DNA from: Chloroflexota bacterium
GTDB lineage: Bacteria; Chloroflexota; Dehalococcoidia; DSTF01; RBG-16-68-14
Reading direction: 5' to 3'
DNA: 41,424 nucleotides
NCBI GenBank assembly: GCA_022570885.1
Contig: JACZYW010000001.1
Span: 1-41,424, forward strand
Numbering within the stretch: the first letter of the stretch is position 1; every line of letters begins with the position of its first letter. Under the pieces are notes generated by a model, which had not been told where the DNA came from, made no database searches, and worked only from the letters and a program-made list of their open reading frames with translations. Positions 2,336 through 16,040 of the stretch are shown here, piece by piece. The translations under genes and the position numbers were made by a program.

Positions 2336-3400
2336 ATGAGCGAGAAGCTGAACGGACTGCCCCCCATCAAAGTCGTTGGTGTGGGGGGAGGCGGTTGCAA
2401 CGCCGTGAACCGCATGATCGGCGAGGAGATGGAAGGCGTCCAGTTCGTCGGCATCAACACCGACGCGCAGGCGCTGGCCCGCTGCGAGGCGCCGGTGCGT
2501 GTTCGCATCGGCGAGAAGCTGACCAAGGGGCTGGGCGTCGGCGGCGATGCGGAGAAGGGTTTGCGCTCCGCCGAGGAGAGCCGCGATGAGATCCTGGACG
2601 CGGTGCGCGGCGCGGAGATGGTGTTCGTGACCGCCGGCATGGGCGGCGGCACCGGCACTGGCGCCTCGCCGGTGGTGGCGGAGGTCGCGCGCGAGGTGGG
2701 CGCCCTCACTGTCGGCGTCGTTACCAAGCCCTTCAGCTTCGAAGGGGCGAAGCGCCGCGAGCAGGCGGACGAGGGTATCAACCTGCTCCGCCAGCACGTC
2801 GACACCTTGATCATCATCCCCAACGACCGCCTGCTGGACATCAGCGGGCCGGAGGTGACGGTGGAGGAGGCGTTCCGCACGGCCGACGATGTCCTTCGCC
2901 AGGGCATCCAGGGCATCTCAGAGCTGATCACCCTGCCCGGCGAGATCAACCTGGACTTCGCGGACGTACGGCGGATCATGCAGGACGCCGGCCCGGCGCT
3001 GCTCGCCGTTGGGAAGGCGAGCGGCGAGGATCGGGCGGTAGCGGCGGCCCGCGAGGCCATCAGCAGCCCGCTGCTGGATATTAGCATCGAGGGCGCGAAG
3101 GGCGTGCTCTTCAACGTCACCGGCGCTCGCAACCTGTCGCTGCACGAGCTCCACGCGGCGGCCCAGGTGATCGCCGAGGTGGTGGCGCCGGATGCCGAGA
3201 TCATCTTCGGCACGGCGATCGACCCCAGCTTGGGCGATGAGGTGAAGGTGACGGTGATCGCGACCGGCTTCCCCGTGGGGCCGCGGGCGCTCGAAGCAGA
3301 GAAGGCCAGCCTTGGCCAACACTTCGGCGCGGAGCCGCCGGCCCCCGCGACGGATACGGAGCTTCCCGCCTTCCTGCGTCGCACCGTAGAGGTGCGTTAG
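2336..3400 (+). CDS. ftsZ: cell division GTPase FtsZ
   Basis: Contains [15 protein letters not shown] and the tubulin signature [16 protein letters not shown] 2336 is preceded by the SD AGGAAGGAGA. The track ORF opens at GTG 2108, but the extra 76 aa are low-complexity and not FtsZ-like. Confidence 0.94.
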
Positions 3401-4929: not shown

Positions 4930-6213
4930 CTACTCGACGAGCACCACATCCGGGGCTTCGAAAGTGCGGAACTCTCCATACGTGAGGTCGAGGGGCGAGT
5001 TGCCGGATAGTTGAAAGCCGTTCACGATGAGCTGCACCGTGCCGAATTGAGAGTCGCCACTGATGTCTAACGTGGCCCCCGGCGCGTAGAAGATGCCGCT
5101 GATCAGATCGTTGCTCCCACGCATCTTAAAGTCAGCGGTGATCGCTTCGTCCTGCCAGAGGGTGATGCCTTCATAGGGGCCGGAGGTGGGCGGAGACAAG
5201 TCCATAGCGCCGGAACCCGTCAGGTCGAACGGCTTGGGCGCGCCATCTCCCGTGGGATTGGTCGGATTTTCCGTGACGTAGATCATGACTCCGTCGCCAA
5301 CAAAGCTCGCACCGCCTGCCTTGGAGAAGCCACCGCCGGCCATGATATAGATGCCGGGCTGGAGCGTGATGGTACAGGTGCAGTTGGAGTAGAAGCCGCC
5401 GTAGTACGTGCCGGGATACAGCGTGAAGTCTCCGCCGCTAGTGACGGTCCACGTATCGGGGTTCACGGCGGTACCGGAGGATCCCGGCGCTGGCGACCCC
5501 AGCGAGGGCGGTGACAGGCTCGCCAGCGGGTCGCTGACCGTCCAAGACACACTATTCGGCTCCGGGCTGATAGTGCCCGAACCGCCGACGTCGTATCCGC
5601 CGTACACGTCAATACTGCCTTCCACGATGAGGTCGCCGGCGCCGGTCTTGCTCAGAGCGTCGGATGGGCAGCTAGAGTTGACCATGACGCCGCCCCCGGC
5701 GATCGTCAGGCTGGCATTCCCTTGCTGTCTGAAAGATTGGCAATCGTCCGGGTCCAGCACAACCAGAGCATACGGTTCTGGGAAGAGGGGGAAGCCGGCC
5801 ACCCCGCGTGCCTGCACCGTCGAGCCGCCTGGTATCAAGACATGGATGAAGAACGTCGGCGGTTGCTCGGAGACGATCACCTCCACGTAGAGTGGATCGC
5901 CAACATGCGCGCCTGAAGTGGGTGGGATGTTGACCGTAACCGTGCTGGAGCCGCCGCTGTTGTCGAAGCCGTTCTCGTCTGCGTATGCCAGCGCCGTGGT
6001 GGTGGCATCGGCAACGCTGCGGCCGTTGAACAGCTCGTAGGTTGCGGCGAGCGCCGCCTCGTCGGCAGCGTTCTGCGCCTGGCGATGCTCCGCGTAGAGA
6101 TAACCGACGTCGATGACAAGTCCAGTGAAGGCGAGGAGGGCGACGATCACGAATGCCGAGAGCACAAGTATCTGCCCTCGTTCGTCCCGTAGCGTTCGTA
6201 GATTGCGCTTCAT
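4930..6213 (-). CDS. TadG-like pseudopilin / Flp-pilus-assembly TadE/G-like N-terminal domain protein
   Basis: 427 aa. The N-terminus RDERGQILVLSAFVIVALLAFTGLVIDVGYLYAEHRQAQNAADEAALAA is typical of the TadG-like N-terminal domain. The remainder is G/S/T-rich and beta-rich. SD GAGGAG precedes the ATG. Confidence 0.72.
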   Translation of the reverse strand: MKRNLRTLRDERGQILVLSAFVIVALLAFTGLVIDVGYLYAEHRQAQNAADEAALAATYELFNGRSVADATTTALAYADENGFDNSGGSSTVTVNIPPTSGAHVGDPLYVEVIVSEQPPTFFIHVLIPGGSTVQARGVAGFPLFPEPYALVVLDPDDCQSFRQQGNASLTIAGGGVMVNSSCPSDALSKTGAGDLIVEGSIDVYGGYDVGGSGTISPEPNSVSWTVSDPLASLSPPSLGSPAPGSSGTAVNPDTWTVTSGGDFTLYPGTYYGGFYSNCTCTITLQPGIYIMAGGGFSKAGGASFVGDGVMIYVTENPTNPTGDGAPKPFDLTGSGAMDLSPPTSGPYEGITLWQDEAITADFKMRGSNDLISGIFYAPGATLDISGDSQFGTVQLIVNGFQLSGNSPLDLTYGEFRTFEAPDVVLVE

Positions 6214-6232: not shown

Positions 6233-6682
6233 CTAATTAGCGATCGCCATGGTCGACGAGCTGGACATGTCGAACTCGAGTATCCCGAACATGTTGAAGA
6301 TAGGCGTGTACGTGTATTGAGAGGACACCGTGACTCGGTTGCCCTTCTCGTTGGTGCCGTCGATCCAGGTGGTTTCCACCGTCAACTGCAAAGTGTTCAG
6401 TGAGCCGGCATGGTTCTCAACCACCTGGGAAACCTGCGTATCGCTGTTCGGGGACGTGTAATAGCTGCTGCCCGGCCCGCTGGGATCCGAGGAGTCGGCG
6501 CCGTGGACGATCGCGTAGCGAGTGCCCTCTCGCGTCGCCTCGGCCAGCGCGTTGTAGTGCCAGACGGCGCGGCCGATGTCGATCATGCCGAAGACCAGCA
6601 TGAAGAAGATAAGCGAGATCAGTGCGAACTCCGTCAACGCTTGGCCGCCCTCGCCCCGTTTGGCAACGCGGAACCGCCTCAT
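6233..6682 (-). CDS. TadE-like pseudopilin
   Basis: GQALTEFALISLIFFMLVFGMIDIGR matches the prepilin-like G/xxxxEF motif plus hydrophobic helix. The start is taken at the internal ATG 6682, which overlaps the upstream stop as ATGA. The track ORF extends to 6742. Confidence 0.72.
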   Translation of the reverse strand: MRRFRVAKRGEGGQALTEFALISLIFFMLVFGMIDIGRAVWHYNALAEATREGTRYAIVHGADSSDPSGPGSSYYTSPNSDTQVSQVVENHAGSLNTLQLTVETTWIDGTNEKGNRVTVSSQYTYTPIFNMFGILEFDMSSSSTMAIAN

Positions 6683-7143
6683 TCCCTGACCCTCGCTGTC
6701 ACCGTACGGGCGACATCTATCGATTCTGGTATGCCCGGCCAAGGGAAGAGCATGTTGAAGGTGTAGGTCACGGTCACATCAACGCGGCGATGGTCCGGGC
6801 CGAACCACCCATCGGTGGTCACGGAAACGGCTGGGTTGGTCGGTGAAAGGTTGAGCAGGTCACTGGTGTCTGCGACGACAGCGTTCCTGATGCCGTCCTC
6901 GTCGCAAGAGACGGCGCAGTTACGGGCTGCGTAGTCCGCGCCGGTGCGGGCGCTGTTTGTCACCGATACGTATGCGAAGTAGACTCGCCCGAAGTCGATG
7001 GCGCCCAGGACCAGGAGTATGAGTACGGGCAACATCAGCCCGAACTCCACCAGGCTCTGGCCGCGCTTATCGCCGATAAGCCGTCGCAGCGATCTCCGGT
7101 GCCGCTTGCCCTGGGCTGCCTGCGATGATTCCTGCATGCTCAT
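6679..7143 (-). CDS. TadE-like pseudopilin
   Basis: 154 aa. GQSLVEFGLMLPVLILLVLGAIDFGRVYFAY matches the TadE N-terminal motif. SD GGAGGG is 5 nt upstream of the ATG. Confidence 0.72.
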   Translation of the reverse strand: MSMQESSQAAQGKRHRRSLRRLIGDKRGQSLVEFGLMLPVLILLVLGAIDFGRVYFAYVSVTNSARTGADYAARNCAVSCDEDGIRNAVVADTSDLLNLSPTNPAVSVTTDGWFGPDHRRVDVTVTYTFNMLFPWPGIPESIDVARTVTARVRE

Positions 7144-7209: not shown

Positions 7210-7303
7210 AGAGGTCCGGCAGCCCGGCTGTCCTCTTCCCGTATAGGTGGTGGACCCGTGGCTTTGCGTCCCCGGCTCTCGCCGGGTTTGCCCTGTTCGG
7301 AGT
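7210..7303 (-). promoter_or_regulatory. c-di-GMP-I (GEMM) riboswitch aptamer in the 5' leader of the tadE-like operon
   Basis: The minus strand reads CUCCGAACAGGGCAAACC-CGGC-GAGA-GCCG-GGGACGCAAAGCC-ACGGGUCC...GGACAGCCGGGCUGCCGGA. The blocks ACAGGGCAAACC and GGGACGCAAAGCC are identical to my recollection of the Vibrio Vc2 aptamer. There is a 4-bp helix with a GNRA loop, and the second helix has an AG bulge. The aptamer ends 70 nt before ATG 7143. Confidence 0.85.
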
Positions 7304-12985: not shown

Positions 12986-15175
12986 TTATGCCGCGGGCTC
13001 TGCTGCCTCAGCCGGCTTAGAGCCGCCGTCTCCCTGATCGTCGCTCTCTGCCGGAGCTTCGTCCGACGGTTGCTCGTAGGAGTCACGGAGAATGTTGGGG
13101 ATCTGCTCCTGGTCCGAGCCTTCTGCTGCAGCCACCGTCTCCGTAGCGTCCAACTCGAACAGAAACGTCCAGGAGCCGACCGTGAACGTCTCGCCGGAAT
13201 CCAGGATCAGCCAGCTACCGGGCATCGACCCGCTGGTGCTCAACCGTTGCAGCTCGTGCACCATGAGCTTTCCATCTCGGACCCAGACTCTCGCCCACTC
13301 CGGAACGATCTCCTCGTCTCCATCTTTCTCGGGAAGCTTGATGAGACAGCGATAGCCGGAGCCGATGCTGGCGGCCGCGTCGCTCACCGGGAACGCCTGG
13401 CCCTGGAGCGAGCCGCTGGTGACCATCAGGCGGCCCAGCGGCTTGTTGGTGAGGACCGGCGTCGCCGGCGGCGGTTCGTCGCCCCAAAGCGGCCGAGGCG
13501 TAGGATTCTTGTTCCATCCGCCTGTGACGATGGGCCCGGGCGACGGGCCTTGTGGCGCATCCGGGTCGGGCTCTCCCTCGTCGCTGCGCCGCCGCCGCAG
13601 CAGGTAGCGCACGAAGAGCGCCCCGCCCACGCCCGCGACCACGATCAGCCCGGCCGCGATGAGAAGGCTTAGGCTCATCGTCTCGCCTTCGCTCGTGCGC
13701 ACCGTTACCGCGGCCGTGGCTGTTAAGCCGGCGTCGGTGACAACCTCAACTTGGAGCGTGTGCTCTCCACCCGCTGAGGAGGCTGGGTCGAAGCTGAACT
13801 CGTAAGGTGGCTCGGTGAGCTCTAGCACGGACTCGCCGTCCACCAGGAAGGTGACGCTGCTGATGGGATCGAGCGATTCGATCTCGGCGGTCACGGTGCG
13901 CGTTTCAGTGAGCTGCTCGTCGGAGGTCACGCCGCTTAATGTGACCGACGGTGCGGCTGGCGGGCCGGTGCGCACCAGCACCGCCGTTGACGTTGCCGTC
14001 CGCCCGGTGGTGGTGGCCACCGTTACCTGGAGCGAGTGCTCGCCGTCGCTGACGAGCGCCGGGTCGAACGTGAACTGGTAGGGCGGCTCAGTGAGCTGTA
14101 GCACCGCTTCGCCGTTCACTAGGAAGGTGACGCTGCTGATGGGATCGGCCGAGACGATCTGGGCGATCACGATGCGCGCGCCCTCTAGCCGCTCGCCTGG
14201 CTCCACCGCGCTCAGCGTCACGATCGGCCCCCGGGGCTCGAACGTGCGCTCGCCACTGCCCGTCAGCTCGCCTGTGGTCACGTCCACGCGGAGGGTGACC
14301 GCCTGCGATTCGTCCAGGGTGATCCCGGTCGTGTCTAGCGTGAGGATGTACTGGCCTCGCAGCAGCTCAGCCGCTTCCGCATAGAGCTGGGCCAGCCCCT
14401 GCGGCGATGGTGTCTCTGCGAACCGGCCGCCGCTTCCCTGGGCCAGCTCCTGAAGGTACGCGCGGTCGATGCCAGTACCGAGCCCGATGGCGAACACCGG
14501 CACGCCCAGCGTCTGAGCTGTCGTGAGGGCGTCGGCGCGCGAGAGCAGACTGCCGTCGTCGACGCCGTCGGTCAACAGCACCACCGTCAGGCGGCTGTTG
14601 CCGGAGTCGGCCGCCAGCCGGACGCTCGCGACCGTCGCGTCGTATAGCGCTGTATTGCCGCTCGCGACGAGGCCATCGATCGCAGCGCCTGCCGCTGCTC
14701 TGTCCGTCGTGAACGCCAAGAGCGGCGCCACAGTATCGGCGAAGGCGACGATAGCGACGGTGTCCTGTGGCCCAAGGTCGTCCAGGAAGCGATGGGCGGC
14801 TGTCTTCGCCTGGGTCAAGGCGCCACCGGCCATGCTGCCGCTTACGTCCAGCGCCAGCACGACGGCGATGCCCAAGCTGCTGTCTACGCCGCGGGTGACC
14901 GCGCTTACCGGCACGGCGGCGCCGTTGAGGTTGGCCTGGAACTGCTCAGCCGTTAGGTCGGCCAGCGGGCGGCCGTCGCTCGCCAGCACCGTCACCACCG
15001 CTTGCGCCTGCGAAGATTCGTCTGTGGTGAAGCTGGCCACCTCTACCGTCAGCGTCTCTTCCTGCGCGAGCCCGGCTACCGGCGAAAGCAACAGCGTCGC
15101 TAAGGCCAGGAGCAGCCATATCAGGTGGCTCCAGCGCAGACGTGACTTCAGTTCACGCTGCCGTCGATGTAACAC
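12986..15175 (-). CDS. secreted vWA domain - 2x Ig-like repeat - TM - cytoplasmic FHA domain protein
   Basis: 729 aa, GTG start with SD GGAGGG. Signal peptide LIWLLLALATLLLSPVAGLAQE. vWA MIDAS motif LALDVSGSM. Two roughly 90-aa paralogous repeats (...DPISSVTFLV(N/D)GE(A/S)VL(Q/E)LTEPPY(Q/E)F(T/S)FDP...). TM LLIAAGLIVVAGVGGALFV + RYLLRRRR. FHA-like C-terminus (LGRLMV..G...G..F.....SIGSG..C.I.L....VS..HA-like pattern). Confidence 0.85.
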   Translation of the reverse strand: MLHRRQRELKSRLRWSHLIWLLLALATLLLSPVAGLAQEETLTVEVASFTTDESSQAQAVVTVLASDGRPLADLTAEQFQANLNGAAVPVSAVTRGVDSSLGIAVVLALDVSGSMAGGALTQAKTAAHRFLDDLGPQDTVAIVAFADTVAPLLAFTTDRAAAGAAIDGLVASGNTALYDATVASVRLAADSGNSRLTVVLLTDGVDDGSLLSRADALTTAQTLGVPVFAIGLGTGIDRAYLQELAQGSGGRFAETPSPQGLAQLYAEAAELLRGQYILTLDTTGITLDESQAVTLRVDVTTGELTGSGERTFEPRGPIVTLSAVEPGERLEGARIVIAQIVSADPISSVTFLVNGEAVLQLTEPPYQFTFDPALVSDGEHSLQVTVATTTGRTATSTAVLVRTGPPAAPSVTLSGVTSDEQLTETRTVTAEIESLDPISSVTFLVDGESVLELTEPPYEFSFDPASSAGGEHTLQVEVVTDAGLTATAAVTVRTSEGETMSLSLLIAAGLIVVAGVGGALFVRYLLRRRRSDEGEPDPDAPQGPSPGPIVTGGWNKNPTPRPLWGDEPPPATPVLTNKPLGRLMVTSGSLQGQAFPVSDAAASIGSGYRCLIKLPEKDGDEEIVPEWARVWVRDGKLMVHELQRLSTSGSMPGSWLILDSGETFTVGSWTFLFELDATETVAAAEGSDQEQIPNILRDSYEQPSDEAPAESDDQGDGGSKPAEAAEPAA

Positions 15176-15219: not shown

Positions 15220-15248
15220 TTGACATATCGTGGAAGCTGTGACACAAT
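15220..15248 (+). promoter_or_regulatory. candidate sigma-70 promoter far upstream of ORF 15705
   Basis: TTGACA (15220-15225), 17 nt, CACAAT (15243-15248). It would give a roughly 450-nt leader. Confidence 0.35.
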
Positions 15249-15562
15249 ACGGCGCGATCAGCATGGCGCAGTACGATCCGTTCGCGGCTCGCTTTCGGAT
15301 CAGATACTCAAGTGTAGTATCGGACGGACGAGCGTACTGTTCAGGGCAAGGACGTCCCAGCGGAAGGATCGCTGTCGGGCAGCAGGAGGCGGGCCTGGGA
15401 GCGTAGGGGTGCTCCTTGTAGGAATCCCCACCTTAACTAAGCGATCTACAGCTGTTCCCTTCGGGGGGAGTTGAGATCGGGCTACGGGCCCAGGGGACGC
15501 GCGTTCAGGAGGCGGGGCCTGATTAGCGTCCCCTGGTTCCCACCCATGACAACAGAAGAGTG

Positions 15563-15684
15563 CCTCCGATAAAGGCGCGGCGCGGGAAACCGCGTTTGGC
15601 CGAAAGGCCCCCGGCGATTCGTCCGGGCGCAAAGCTTCGGGTCTACTCCCCGCGAGGGGAACGACAGCCGAGCTGCCGAAGAGG
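15563..15684 (+). promoter_or_regulatory. divergent GEMM (c-di-GMP-I)-like riboswitch candidate
   Basis: The 3' half CGCAAAGCUUCGGGUC-...-GACAGCCGAGCUGCCGAAG matches the 7210-7303 element (ACGCAAAGCCACGGGUCC-...-GGACAGCCGGGCUGCCGGA), including the AG bulge and compensatory helix changes. Both share the 5' CUCCGA. The first helix is replaced by three hairpins, two with GAAA loops. CCGAA (15676-80) can alternatively pair with UUCGG (15690-94), which overlaps the SD GGAGG. Confidence 0.5.
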
Positions 15685-15704
15685 AACCGTTCGGAGGATC
15701 TTCG

Positions 15705-16040
15705 ATGAAGCGGACATTAGCACGAGCCAGCTGCGCCGGTCTCCTGGCTGTTCTTCTCTCCACAGGCACTGGACTTGTCATCCTCGGGTTCGCGTTCGTC
15801 CCCACGAGCGAGACCACCAGCGTCTCCCTGGCGGCGACAGCGACTCCCACCTACGTCTCTGAGTTAGCGCCGGCTGTGGTGGTGCAGCCGCGCCAGGCCG
15901 CTGCCCTGCCCGATTCCGGCGCCGGCCCGAACCTCGGCGCGGCCAACCCGCTGCCCCGGGCGGCCGGCTTTGCGCTCTTGCTGCTGGGCGGCCTGCTGAT
16001 ACGTACTGGCCTCGCCTGGCGCTCCAGCACGAACCGCTAG
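15705..16040 (+). CDS. small secreted protein with an LPxTG-like (LPDSG) C-terminal signal
   Basis: 111 aa. SD GGAGG is 7 nt upstream. Signal peptide LARASCAGLLAVLLSTGTGLVILGFA. The C-terminus is LPDSGAG...FALLLLGGLLI + RTGLAWRSSTNR. Confidence 0.6.
   Translation: MKRTLARASCAGLLAVLLSTGTGLVILGFAFVPTSETTSVSLAATATPTYVSELAPAVVVQPRQAAALPDSGAGPNLGAANPLPRAAGFALLLLGGLLIRTGLAWRSSTNR

Follow-up and report, generated by a model that had tools for sequence, protein, structure and literature searches.

A c-di-GMP-I riboswitch with an enlarged P2 arm and a predicted P1 strand swap at the ribosome-binding site in a Chloroflexota genome

In front of a small open reading frame in a Chloroflexota genome lies a structured leader of which one half resembles a known riboswitch and the other half does not. 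This raises the question of which class the element belongs to, how its rebuilt half came about, which ligand it would bind and how it would act on the gene behind it. Here, the window denotes the whole stretch of DNA analyzed, 41,424 nt of contig JACZYW010000001.1, and the element lies at 15563-15704. A first-pass annotation of the letters had described a GEMM-like element related to a riboswitch 7.2 kb into the window and had proposed a translational ON switch, and either a new structural variant or a changed ligand specificity. Taken together, we give a probability of about 0.6 to the combined reading that this is a GEMM-I riboswitch with an enlarged P2, which c-di-GMP drives as a translational ON switch by swapping the partner of a P1 strand.

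Family membership and gene context

Rfam at gathering thresholds yields two matches in the window. The c-di-GMP-I model RF01051 matches 15596-15680 on the plus strand with 49.1 bits against a gathering score of 35 (E = 9e-7 for the 41-kb window), and RF03167 of clan CL00126 matches 7214-7301 on the minus strand with 75.9 bits. Since the former match lies above the gathering score, the element is real and a member of the GEMM-I clan, as the annotation had supposed. Its score comes mostly from the 3' half, and the posterior probabilities of the P2 part fall to 0.4-0.8. A permissive Rfam scan of 15300-15800 added nothing credible beyond the GEMM-I match, and the c-di-GMP-II model (RF01786) found no match in this interval even at E <= 10. 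P1 and P3 are present, and in place of the single P2 hairpin of the three-helix junction there are three hairpins. The 3' two-thirds of the element follow the canonical plan, with the C44 equivalent, the P2 closing GC, the AAA of J2/3, P3 with its AG bulge, the C92 equivalent and the P1 3' strand. Sequence comparison identifies the element as a c-di-GMP class I (GEMM-I) riboswitch in the 5' untranslated region (UTR) of a small operon.

The motifs that had been read from the letters are in place. Both elements begin with CUCCGA (15564-69 here); the hairpins CGCGG-GAAA-CCGCG, GGCC-GAAA-GGCC and CCCGG-loop-CCGGG occupy 15581-94, 15598-15609 and 15610-27; and CCGAA (15676-80), UUCGG (15690-94), GGAGG (15693-97) and ATG (15705) are found as described. 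The 3' half, CGCAAAGCUUCGGGUC...GACAGCCGAGCUGCCGAAG, aligns with the minus strand of 7214-7301 and shares its AG bulge, while the compensatory change claimed for the helix amounts to one pair, C-G to U-A, at the base of P3. The RF01051 score and the recurrence of the architecture in 12 lineages, with compensatory changes in hp1, hp3 and P3, show the match to be more than chance. CGCAAAGCUUCGGGUC...GACAGCCGAGCUGCCGAAG is followed by UUCGGAGG and then by the ATG, so that the Shine-Dalgarno sequence (SD) GGAGG sits 7 nt upstream of the AUG.

The window is chromosomal and carries ftsA, ftsZ, a tadE/tadG-like operon behind the 7.2-kb riboswitch, and genes for class II RNR, EF-G, secY and rpoA. Upstream of the riboswitch and divergent from it lies the gene for a VWA and Big_7 protein (12986-15175, minus strand). 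Downstream follow the ORF for the 111-aa product and a 147-aa ORF, then the genes for an AAA_16-like ATPase of 453 aa and for a CAP-domain protein. A hydrophobic signal or transmembrane segment lies at the N terminus of the 111-aa product; towards its C terminus, LPDSG precedes a hydrophobic stretch and a basic tail. Its 12 homologues are all 110-111 aa long, and relatives carry LPATG and LPPAG at the position of LPDSG. These features point to an LPXTG-like surface protein resembling sortase substrates; the riboswitch-led operon comprises this protein, the 147-aa protein and the AAA-type ATPase. Transcription from a promoter-like site, whose -10 block TGnCAnAAT is kept in relatives, would give a leader of ~450 nt. 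The structured upstream leader, which matched no Rfam family, is part of the same 5' UTR as the riboswitch. The coordinates of all features are collected in Table 1.

Table 1. Features of the leader and the regulated gene, in window coordinates.
Feature	Position	Strand	Evidence
Promoter-like site TTGACA-17-(TG)CACAAT	15220..15248	+	consensus match; 1 found against 0.1 expected
Structured upstream leader, several hairpins	15314..15560	+	kept across 9-12 lineages, some compensatory changes
GAAGA, putative 5' extension of SD-sequestering helix	15555..15559	+	predicted to pair with UCUUC 15699-15703, probability 0.79-0.87
Strand A CCUCCGA, P1 5' strand and putative anti-SD	15563..15569	+	invariant 16/16; complementary to B and C
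J1/2 UAAAG	15570..15574	+	orthology with L117, where RF01051 aligns CUCCGAGAAGGGC as J1/2-P2
P2 closing helix (2 bp), 5' half GC	15575..15576	+	invariant
hp1 GGCGCGG-GAAA-CCGCGUU	15579..15596	+	4/7 pairs with compensatory double changes
hp2 GGCC-GAAA-GGCC	15598..15609	+	stem invariant except two G.U changes
hp3 CCCGG(CG)-loop-(CG)U-CCGGG, second P2-like stem	15610..15627	+	covaries; used as P2 by Rfam
C-GC-AA	15628..15632	+	C15628 is C44 equivalent, G15629/C15630 are P2 closing 3' half; invariant
P3 hairpin	15633..15674	+	RF01051 alignment; three pairs with compensatory changes
GC	15675..15676	+	C15676 is C92 equivalent
Strand B CG-AA-GAGG, P1 3' strand	15677..15684	+	invariant 16/16; 6 bp with A, AA bulged
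Strand C UCGGAGG, alternative partner of A	15691..15697	+	contains SD GGAGG 15693-97; predicted pair probability 0.88-0.96
UCUUC	15699..15703	+	predicted to pair with GAAGA 15555-59, or locally with GGAG once A:B forms
Regulated ORF, 111 aa	15705..16040	+	ATG at 15705

The enlarged P2 arm and the ligand pocket

Homologous leaders were gathered along several routes. With the 111-aa ORF as query, only homologues of at least 81% identity with near-identical leaders were obtained. Distant leaders were found via an alignment scan of species-representative genomes with the linked ATPase, and further ones via a DNA pattern on the conserved single-stranded blocks (metagenomes) and via exact-protein look-ups. 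All examples were recovered by R1, a covariance model trained on the first nine sequences; more distant ATPase loci from Gemmatimonadota, Acidobacteriota and other groups gave no match to it. The expanded architecture, with ~29 nt added, occurs in twelve lineages, the window and 11 others, so the claim that three hairpins replace the canonical P2 half holds well beyond the window. The window clade includes L001, L004 and L005; the other expanded lineages are L006, L007, L091, L097, L102, L103/L108, L111, L118/L119, L120 and L121-123. Exact and near-exact copies come from metagenome-assembled genomes (MAGs) and metagenome contigs, and the closest relatives at species level carry the label Dehalococcoidia or Chloroflexota. 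Within a known class, the element is a structural variant restricted to a lineage, so far to one orthologous leader in a Dehalococcoidia-like clade. A literature search, which was not exhaustive, found no description of a P2-expanded, four-way-junction or Chloroflexi GEMM-I riboswitch.

In two relatives, L117 and L008, the same syntenic leader holds a shorter element, namely an ordinary three-helix GEMM-I riboswitch with the layout CCUCCGA-(G)AAGG-GC-AC-[P2 stem-loop]-..C-GC-AAAGC-P3-GCUGCCGAAGAGG. RF01051 scores 56.1 bits on L117 and aligns CUCCGAGAAGGGC canonically as J1/2 and the start of P2. The expanded forms score 32.6-49.7 bits, with L006 and L091 below the cut-off; these scores are lower because the Rfam model cannot accommodate the P2 insertion. 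Annotation therefore partly misses the expanded forms, some of which lie at or below the Rfam cut-off.

The stem of hp1 is almost identical in sequence to the P2 stem of L117 (GGCGCGG-GAAA-CCGCGUU against GGCGCGG-GAAA-CCGCGCU), and the flanks AAGGGC... and ...GCGCAAAGC are common to both. Compared with L117, the window element has ~29 nt extra (GGCCGAAAGGCC CCCGG...CCGG), placed after the hp1 3' strand and before C-GC-AAAGC. When these two are aligned together with the 7.2-kb paralogue, hp1 falls with the P2 of L117, and hp3 with its flanks falls with the P2 of the paralogue (CCCGGCGA..CCGGG). On this alignment the ancestral P2 stem is hp1, and hp3 counts as another P2-like module. The simplest history would be that P2 was enlarged by tandem duplication or by acquisition of a second J1/2-P2 module.

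Covariation was scored for a model comprising P1 (CCUCCG:CG-AA-GAGG), a 2-bp P2 closing helix, hp1, hp2, hp3 and P3 on a 16-sequence covariance-model alignment, which was fitted to this model, so that the counts lean its way. In this alignment 98.8% of the cells pair. Double changes affect eight pairs, of which four belong to hp1, one to hp3 and three to P3. At most one of 500 shuffles reaches the observed values, and none of the slid controls does. P1 and the P2 closing pairs are invariant, as is hp2 apart from two G.U changes; since there is no variation, covariation speaks neither for nor against these parts. The hp2 loop is a GNRA loop in most lineages, and hp1 of L103 and L111, wholly different in sequence and length, still forms a hairpin. 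The conserved expansion of P2 and the compensatory changes in hp1, hp3 and P3 bear out the proposal of a new GEMM structural variant. The element could in principle be a relic, i.e., a decaying or non-functional riboswitch whose hairpins are neutral GC-rich leader structure; the folding energy is unremarkable on its own (z-score of only -1.47) and one related operon, L115, is without any riboswitch. However, the signature nucleotides are invariant although the linked ATPase is just 57-77% identical across lineages, and three helices carry compensatory changes, which makes decay hardly credible.

The hairpins can be arranged in either of two ways. They may form a four-way junction (model I), in which G15575-C15630 and C15576-G15629 would enclose hp1, hp2 and hp3. 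Or they may form two tandem P2 modules (model D), in which G15575-C15600 and C15576-G15599 would close hp1, G15607-C15630 and C15608-G15629 would close hp3, and hp2 would be absent. The models are nested and built on the same invariant nucleotides. When P1 is enforced, hp2 and the tandem closings each take about half of the predicted ensemble in most lineages, the two being nearly isoenergetic. Given this even split, the role of G20 may fall to either 15574 or 15606. The tandem modules, AAAG-GC-hp1-GC and GAAAG-GC-hp3-GC, might even form two pockets, used in alternation or at once, or hp2 and the two closing helices, given their near-equal energies, might act as a toggle sensitive to ligand. 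We regard this as unlikely; were it true, the element would be a four-helix GEMM-I riboswitch with a different dose-response or dual recognition and not a standard 1:1 sensor.

Two other anatomies were rejected. Followed literally, the Rfam alignment makes hp3 the only P2 and takes AAAGGC within hp2 for J1/2; neither the conserved AARGGC(A/G)C in front of hp1 nor the GGCC on the 5' side of hp2 is then explained, and the reading clashes with the orthology to L117 and L008. It survives only inside the tandem-P2 alternative. A P1 made of UUUG (15595-98) and CGAA (15677-80) fails, since CCAG, CCCG or CCGG stands in place of UUUG in relatives and U15595/96 are part of hp1.

Pocket positions were numbered according to the description of Vc2/Vc1 in PMC4744006 and the Rfam alignment. 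In Vc2, G20, A47 and C92 contact the ligand and C44-G83 is a universally conserved interhelical pair between P2 and P3 (PMC4744006). The equivalents of A47 and C92 are unambiguous, A15631 and C15676. The equivalent of G20 is G15574 by orthology and the four-way-junction model or G15606 by the Rfam or tandem reading; either may act as G20, and both are G. C15628, 3 nt before the A47 equivalent, and G15667 in the AG bulge, 9 nt before the C92 equivalent, are conserved in 16 of 16 sequences, which shows the nucleotides of the C44-G83 pair to be present rather than paired. Because the signature nucleotides are canonical under either alignment, c-di-GMP is the expected ligand.

An A at position 20 is the mark of c-AMP-GMP (GEMM-Ib) variants (PMC9481103), and both candidates in the window are G. 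L111 alone among the relatives has an A at the G15574 equivalent, which would matter only if model I is right. The c-di-GMP-I-GGC family (RF03167) has G at the A47 position (consensus ACGCGAAGCC); the window reads CGCAAAGC at 15628-35. GAAA loops cap hp1 and hp2, and every expanded lineage keeps at least one GNRA loop. P3 carries the bulged U15637, the AG bulge, a UACU/AAC internal loop and a GCGA loop, and this internal loop differs from the consensus receptor CUAAG/UAUG.

The annotation had also suggested an altered specificity, whereby the remodelled P2 would change the pocket to accept another cyclic dinucleotide or a different ligand. The missing P2 AAA/GAC internal loop, which is highly conserved elsewhere, the different architecture near the pocket, the scores of several expanded forms at or below the Rfam cut-off (32.6-34.8 bits) and the A of L111, in the position that marks c-AMP-GMP variants (PMC9481103), would fit such a change. 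Yet the G20, A47 and C92 equivalents of the window are G, A and C either way, the C44/G83 partners are conserved and the simple orthologues are ordinary GEMM-I riboswitches. Moreover, a gene context of surface-anchored and VWA proteins is typical of c-di-GMP control, and we consider a changed ligand improbable. The GEMM-I scaffold appears to tolerate a three-hairpin swap of its most sequence-conserved arm (GGCAAACC...GGGACGC) with the pocket nucleotides kept. The prediction is c-di-GMP control of a small operon for a sortase-type surface protein and an ATPase in uncultured Dehalococcoidia.

Predicted strand exchange at the ribosome-binding site

Strand A would have two mutually exclusive partners, strand B, with which it forms P1 beside the ligand pocket, or strand C, which contains the SD. 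A:B is a 6-bp P1 with two bulged A, A:C a perfect 7-bp helix. A and B are invariant, the core CGGAGG of C is conserved in 11 of 12 relatives and diverged in L097, and the linker between B and C varies. The invariance of the strands is explained by the need of A to fit two partners. B shares its cg-aa-g with the P1 strand of the RF03167 consensus.

In the predicted ligand-free ensemble A:C has a probability of 0.95, its extension GAAGA:UCUUC of 0.87 and A:B of 0, and the SD is more than 95% paired. GAAGA is found only in the window clade, L111 and L008. The duplex of A:C plus its extension is predicted at -16.1 kcal/mol, A:C without it at -11.3, A:B at -4.8 and CCGAA:UUCGG at -4.5. Forcing A:B is predicted to cost about 7.5-10.5 kcal/mol. 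As A:C is far stronger than A:B, switching must be kinetic or need a large ligand binding energy. Aptamers of the c-di-GMP-I class bind with pM-nM affinity and have very slow off-rates, which would suit kinetic control.

According to the first-pass annotation CCGAA (15676-80) can pair with UUCGG (15690-94), which overlaps the SD. On this reading the pairing would mask the SD, and ligand would free it by pulling CCGAA into the aptamer. The complementarity is present, and a fold with this pairing enforced lies just 2.6-3 kcal/mol above the minimum free energy (MFE). But its predicted occupancy is ~0.01, and its -4.5 kcal/mol stands against -16.1 for the A:C helix. It covers two SD bases only and leaves 15695-97 more than 90% unpaired when enforced. 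The fifth pair is not conserved either, U15690 being G in L006, A in L102 and L121 and C in L120; only UCGG is kept among the relatives, and A:C accounts for that. We therefore think this pairing very unlikely to be the sequestering helix, and the ribosome-binding site is probably hidden by A:C instead.

Without ligand, A:C and GAAGA:UCUUC would bury the SD up to the start codon and keep translation OFF. If c-di-GMP is bound co-transcriptionally, A:B would be locked, B being made before C; the SD would then be freed into a weak local hairpin at most, and translation would be ON. With A:B forced, a local hairpin (UCGGAG/CUUCGA, -4.4 kcal/mol) is still predicted to keep the SD about 80-95% paired, so the contrast between ON and OFF may be modest. 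A translational ON switch by P1 strand swap is most likely, with ON as the probable sign. Thus, of the mechanism originally proposed, the ON logic stays the most plausible, but it would work through the exchange of A:C and A:B and not through CCGAA/UUCGG.

The opposite sign was weighed as well. In an OFF switch A:C would be the P1 of the bound state, CCGAAGAGG and the linker would be a 3' junction loop, and c-di-GMP would stabilize SD sequestration in the window and terminator formation in the relatives. A:C is indeed the MFE helix around the whole aptamer in the window and most relatives, and the terminator of the relatives forms alongside A:C in the MFE structure. However, the P1 3' strand of GEMM-I directly follows C92, B matches the cg-aa-g P1 strand of the RF03167 consensus and is followed by a variable linker, and a loop of 15 nt separating P1 from C92 would disrupt the canonical junction. 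Since B is invariant and placed where P1 must be, the OFF switch is disfavoured relative to the ON switch and keeps a rather low probability.

In the relatives the expression platform is different. Of the 12 other lineages, 11 do not use C as an SD; in them UCUUCA comes after C, then a GC-rich hairpin of 7-12 bp with a U-rich tail (intrinsic terminator), and SD and start codon lie 40-70 nt beyond. In the nascent tail, before the 3' strand of the terminator is made, C (CGGaGG) pairs with the terminator 5' strand (CCgCCG) in the MFE structure of 8 of 12 lineages. At equilibrium the terminator is far more stable than any such antiterminator (C:T5) and always wins. The C of the relatives looks like an antiterminator strand that A would sequester without ligand, which gives the same ON logic. 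An alternative antiterminator, UCUUCAGC:GCUGAAGA, is possible (9 bp, with one correlated change in L117); it was not adopted, being kinetically disfavoured against the nearer GUCUUC copy.

The terminator is gone from the window's clade. In L007, GGAGGUCUUC stands before the terminator and GAGGAGUCUUCGAUG after it, and a deletion between these repeats would give exactly the UCGGAGGAUCUUCGAUG of the window and fuse C to the start codon. The window clade appears to have turned a transcriptional platform into a translational one with the same strand. This would be a case of expression-platform turnover, UCGGAGG apparently being the antiterminator strand in most relatives and the SD itself in the window clade.

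Comparison with known systems

The element shares P1, P3, the AAA of J2/3 and the AG bulge with the c-di-GMP-I archetypes Vc2 and Vc1 of Vibrio cholerae. With the class in general (RF01051) it shares the nucleotides of the G20, A47 and C92 contacts and of the C44-G83 pair, as well as the placement upstream of surface and adhesion genes. Vc1/gbpA is a known case of a GEMM-I riboswitch that turns an adhesin ON (PMC4744006). The archetype has a single P2 with an AAA/GAC loop and a GNRA loop that docks into an 11-nt receptor in P3, whereas the window element has three hairpins and, in P3, a UACU/AAC loop that is not the canonical receptor. For the Rfam model to align it, hp3 must take the place of P2 and part of hp2 that of J1/2.

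On the minus strand at 7214-7301, the 7.2-kb element precedes the tadE-like operon; it belongs to the same class, and its 5' strand is likewise CUCCGA. It has almost the same P3, AG bulge included, its P2 stem CCCGG/CCGGG matches hp3, and the three-strand design recurs in it, CUCCGA being joined by a CGGA nearby and a UCGGAG farther off. It scores 75.9 bits and differs in its canonical single P2 with an AAA/GAC loop and in the absence of hp1 and hp2. L117 and L008, both on Dehalococcoidia MAG contigs, share the syntenic leader, the strands A, B and C and J1/2, and the P2 of L117 resembles hp1; they differ in a three-helix aptamer without the ~29-nt insertion of hp2 and hp3 and in the intrinsic terminator after C. 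Finally, the c-AMP-GMP (GEMM-Ib) and c-di-GMP-I-GGC and -UAU models belong to the same fold family (clan CL00126), but the pocket positions that define these variants are unchanged in the window, with G at 20 and A at 47.

A conserved leader 5' of the riboswitch

The c-di-GMP-I (GEMM-I) riboswitch upstream of the 111-aa ORF is preceded by a leader of about 300 nt that is strongly conserved and structured, both in the window and in the equivalent region of its relatives (compared contigs: L006, L007, L008, L091, L097, L103, L111, L117, L118, L120 and L121). Conserved blocks include GUAGUAUCGGACG..CGUUCAGGGCA as well as GGGCUACGGGCCCAGGGGACGC..CAGGAGGCGGGGCCUG..GCGUCCCCUGG, and a covarying hairpin is enclosed by a CGAUC/GAUCG stem. 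An Rfam scan of this leader gave no family match. The leader and the riboswitch could form a tandem arrangement in which the leader acts as a second regulatory RNA domain. Further upstream lies a promoter-like site whose TGnCAnAAT block is kept in relatives; judged from sequence, transcription from this site would leave the mRNA with a 5' UTR of about 450 nt, which is unusually long.

Features of the window and their counterparts in relatives
Feature	Position	Strand	Basis or remarks
Promoter-like site	15220-15248	+	consensus match: TTGACA-17 nt-CACAAT, TG upstream
Conserved structured leader	15256-15560	+	conservation across relatives
Small regulated protein gene	15705-16040	+	counterparts: L006 around 2883-3208, L007 around 2616-2948
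First riboswitch	7214-7301	-	RF03167 (c-di-GMP-I-GGC variant model), 75.9 bits
tadE/tadE/tadG-like operon, 3' of first riboswitch	6679-7143, 6233-6742, 4930-6213	-

Variation of the riboswitch among relatives

The MAG contig L001 encodes an identical 111-aa protein. Its positions 2277-2404 differ from window positions 15560-15687 by one base in the loop of the third P2 hairpin (CGAUUGGU vs CGAUUCGU), so the window's genome is very close to that of L001 but not identical. In contig L097 (1410-1500) the expanded aptamer is kept, strand C, UCGGAGG in the window, has diverged to UCGACGG and the platform 3' of the aptamer is different; the regulatory logic of this lineage may have changed. Contig L111 (1281-1300) carries A, not G, directly 5' of the first P2 GC (CCUCCGAAAGAGCAC). 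If this A sits at the true equivalent of ligand-contact position G20, the change would be typical of c-AMP-GMP-sensing GEMM-Ib RNAs. Finally, contig L115 carries a closely related operon, its ATPase being 77% identical. At 1430-1560 of this contig neither the riboswitch nor most of the structured leader is present; only the first block, GUAUCGGACGGACGAGCGU..UUCAGGGCAGGGA, is kept, directly 5' of the gene. The riboswitch was therefore gained or lost inside the clade.

The regulated operon

The small protein, for which Pfam gave no family match, carries at its C-terminus an LPXTG-like sorting signal, in which LPDSG, LPPAG or LPATG precedes a hydrophobic segment and then a basic tail. Its gene is followed by one for a 147-aa protein, which is conserved, and one for an AAA_16-like ATPase that has >7900 homologues; a divergent VWA protein gene adjoins the operon. 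This arrangement may represent a MoxR/VWA-like surface system.

Comparison with the 7.2-kb riboswitch

Despite its assignment to the GGC-variant model, the first riboswitch is probably an ordinary c-di-GMP sensor, since the distinguishing G of the RF03167 consensus is replaced by A (CGCAAAGCC in the element vs ACGCGAAGCC in the consensus). It shares with the element studied here the three-strand layout CUCCGA / CGGA / UCGGAG.
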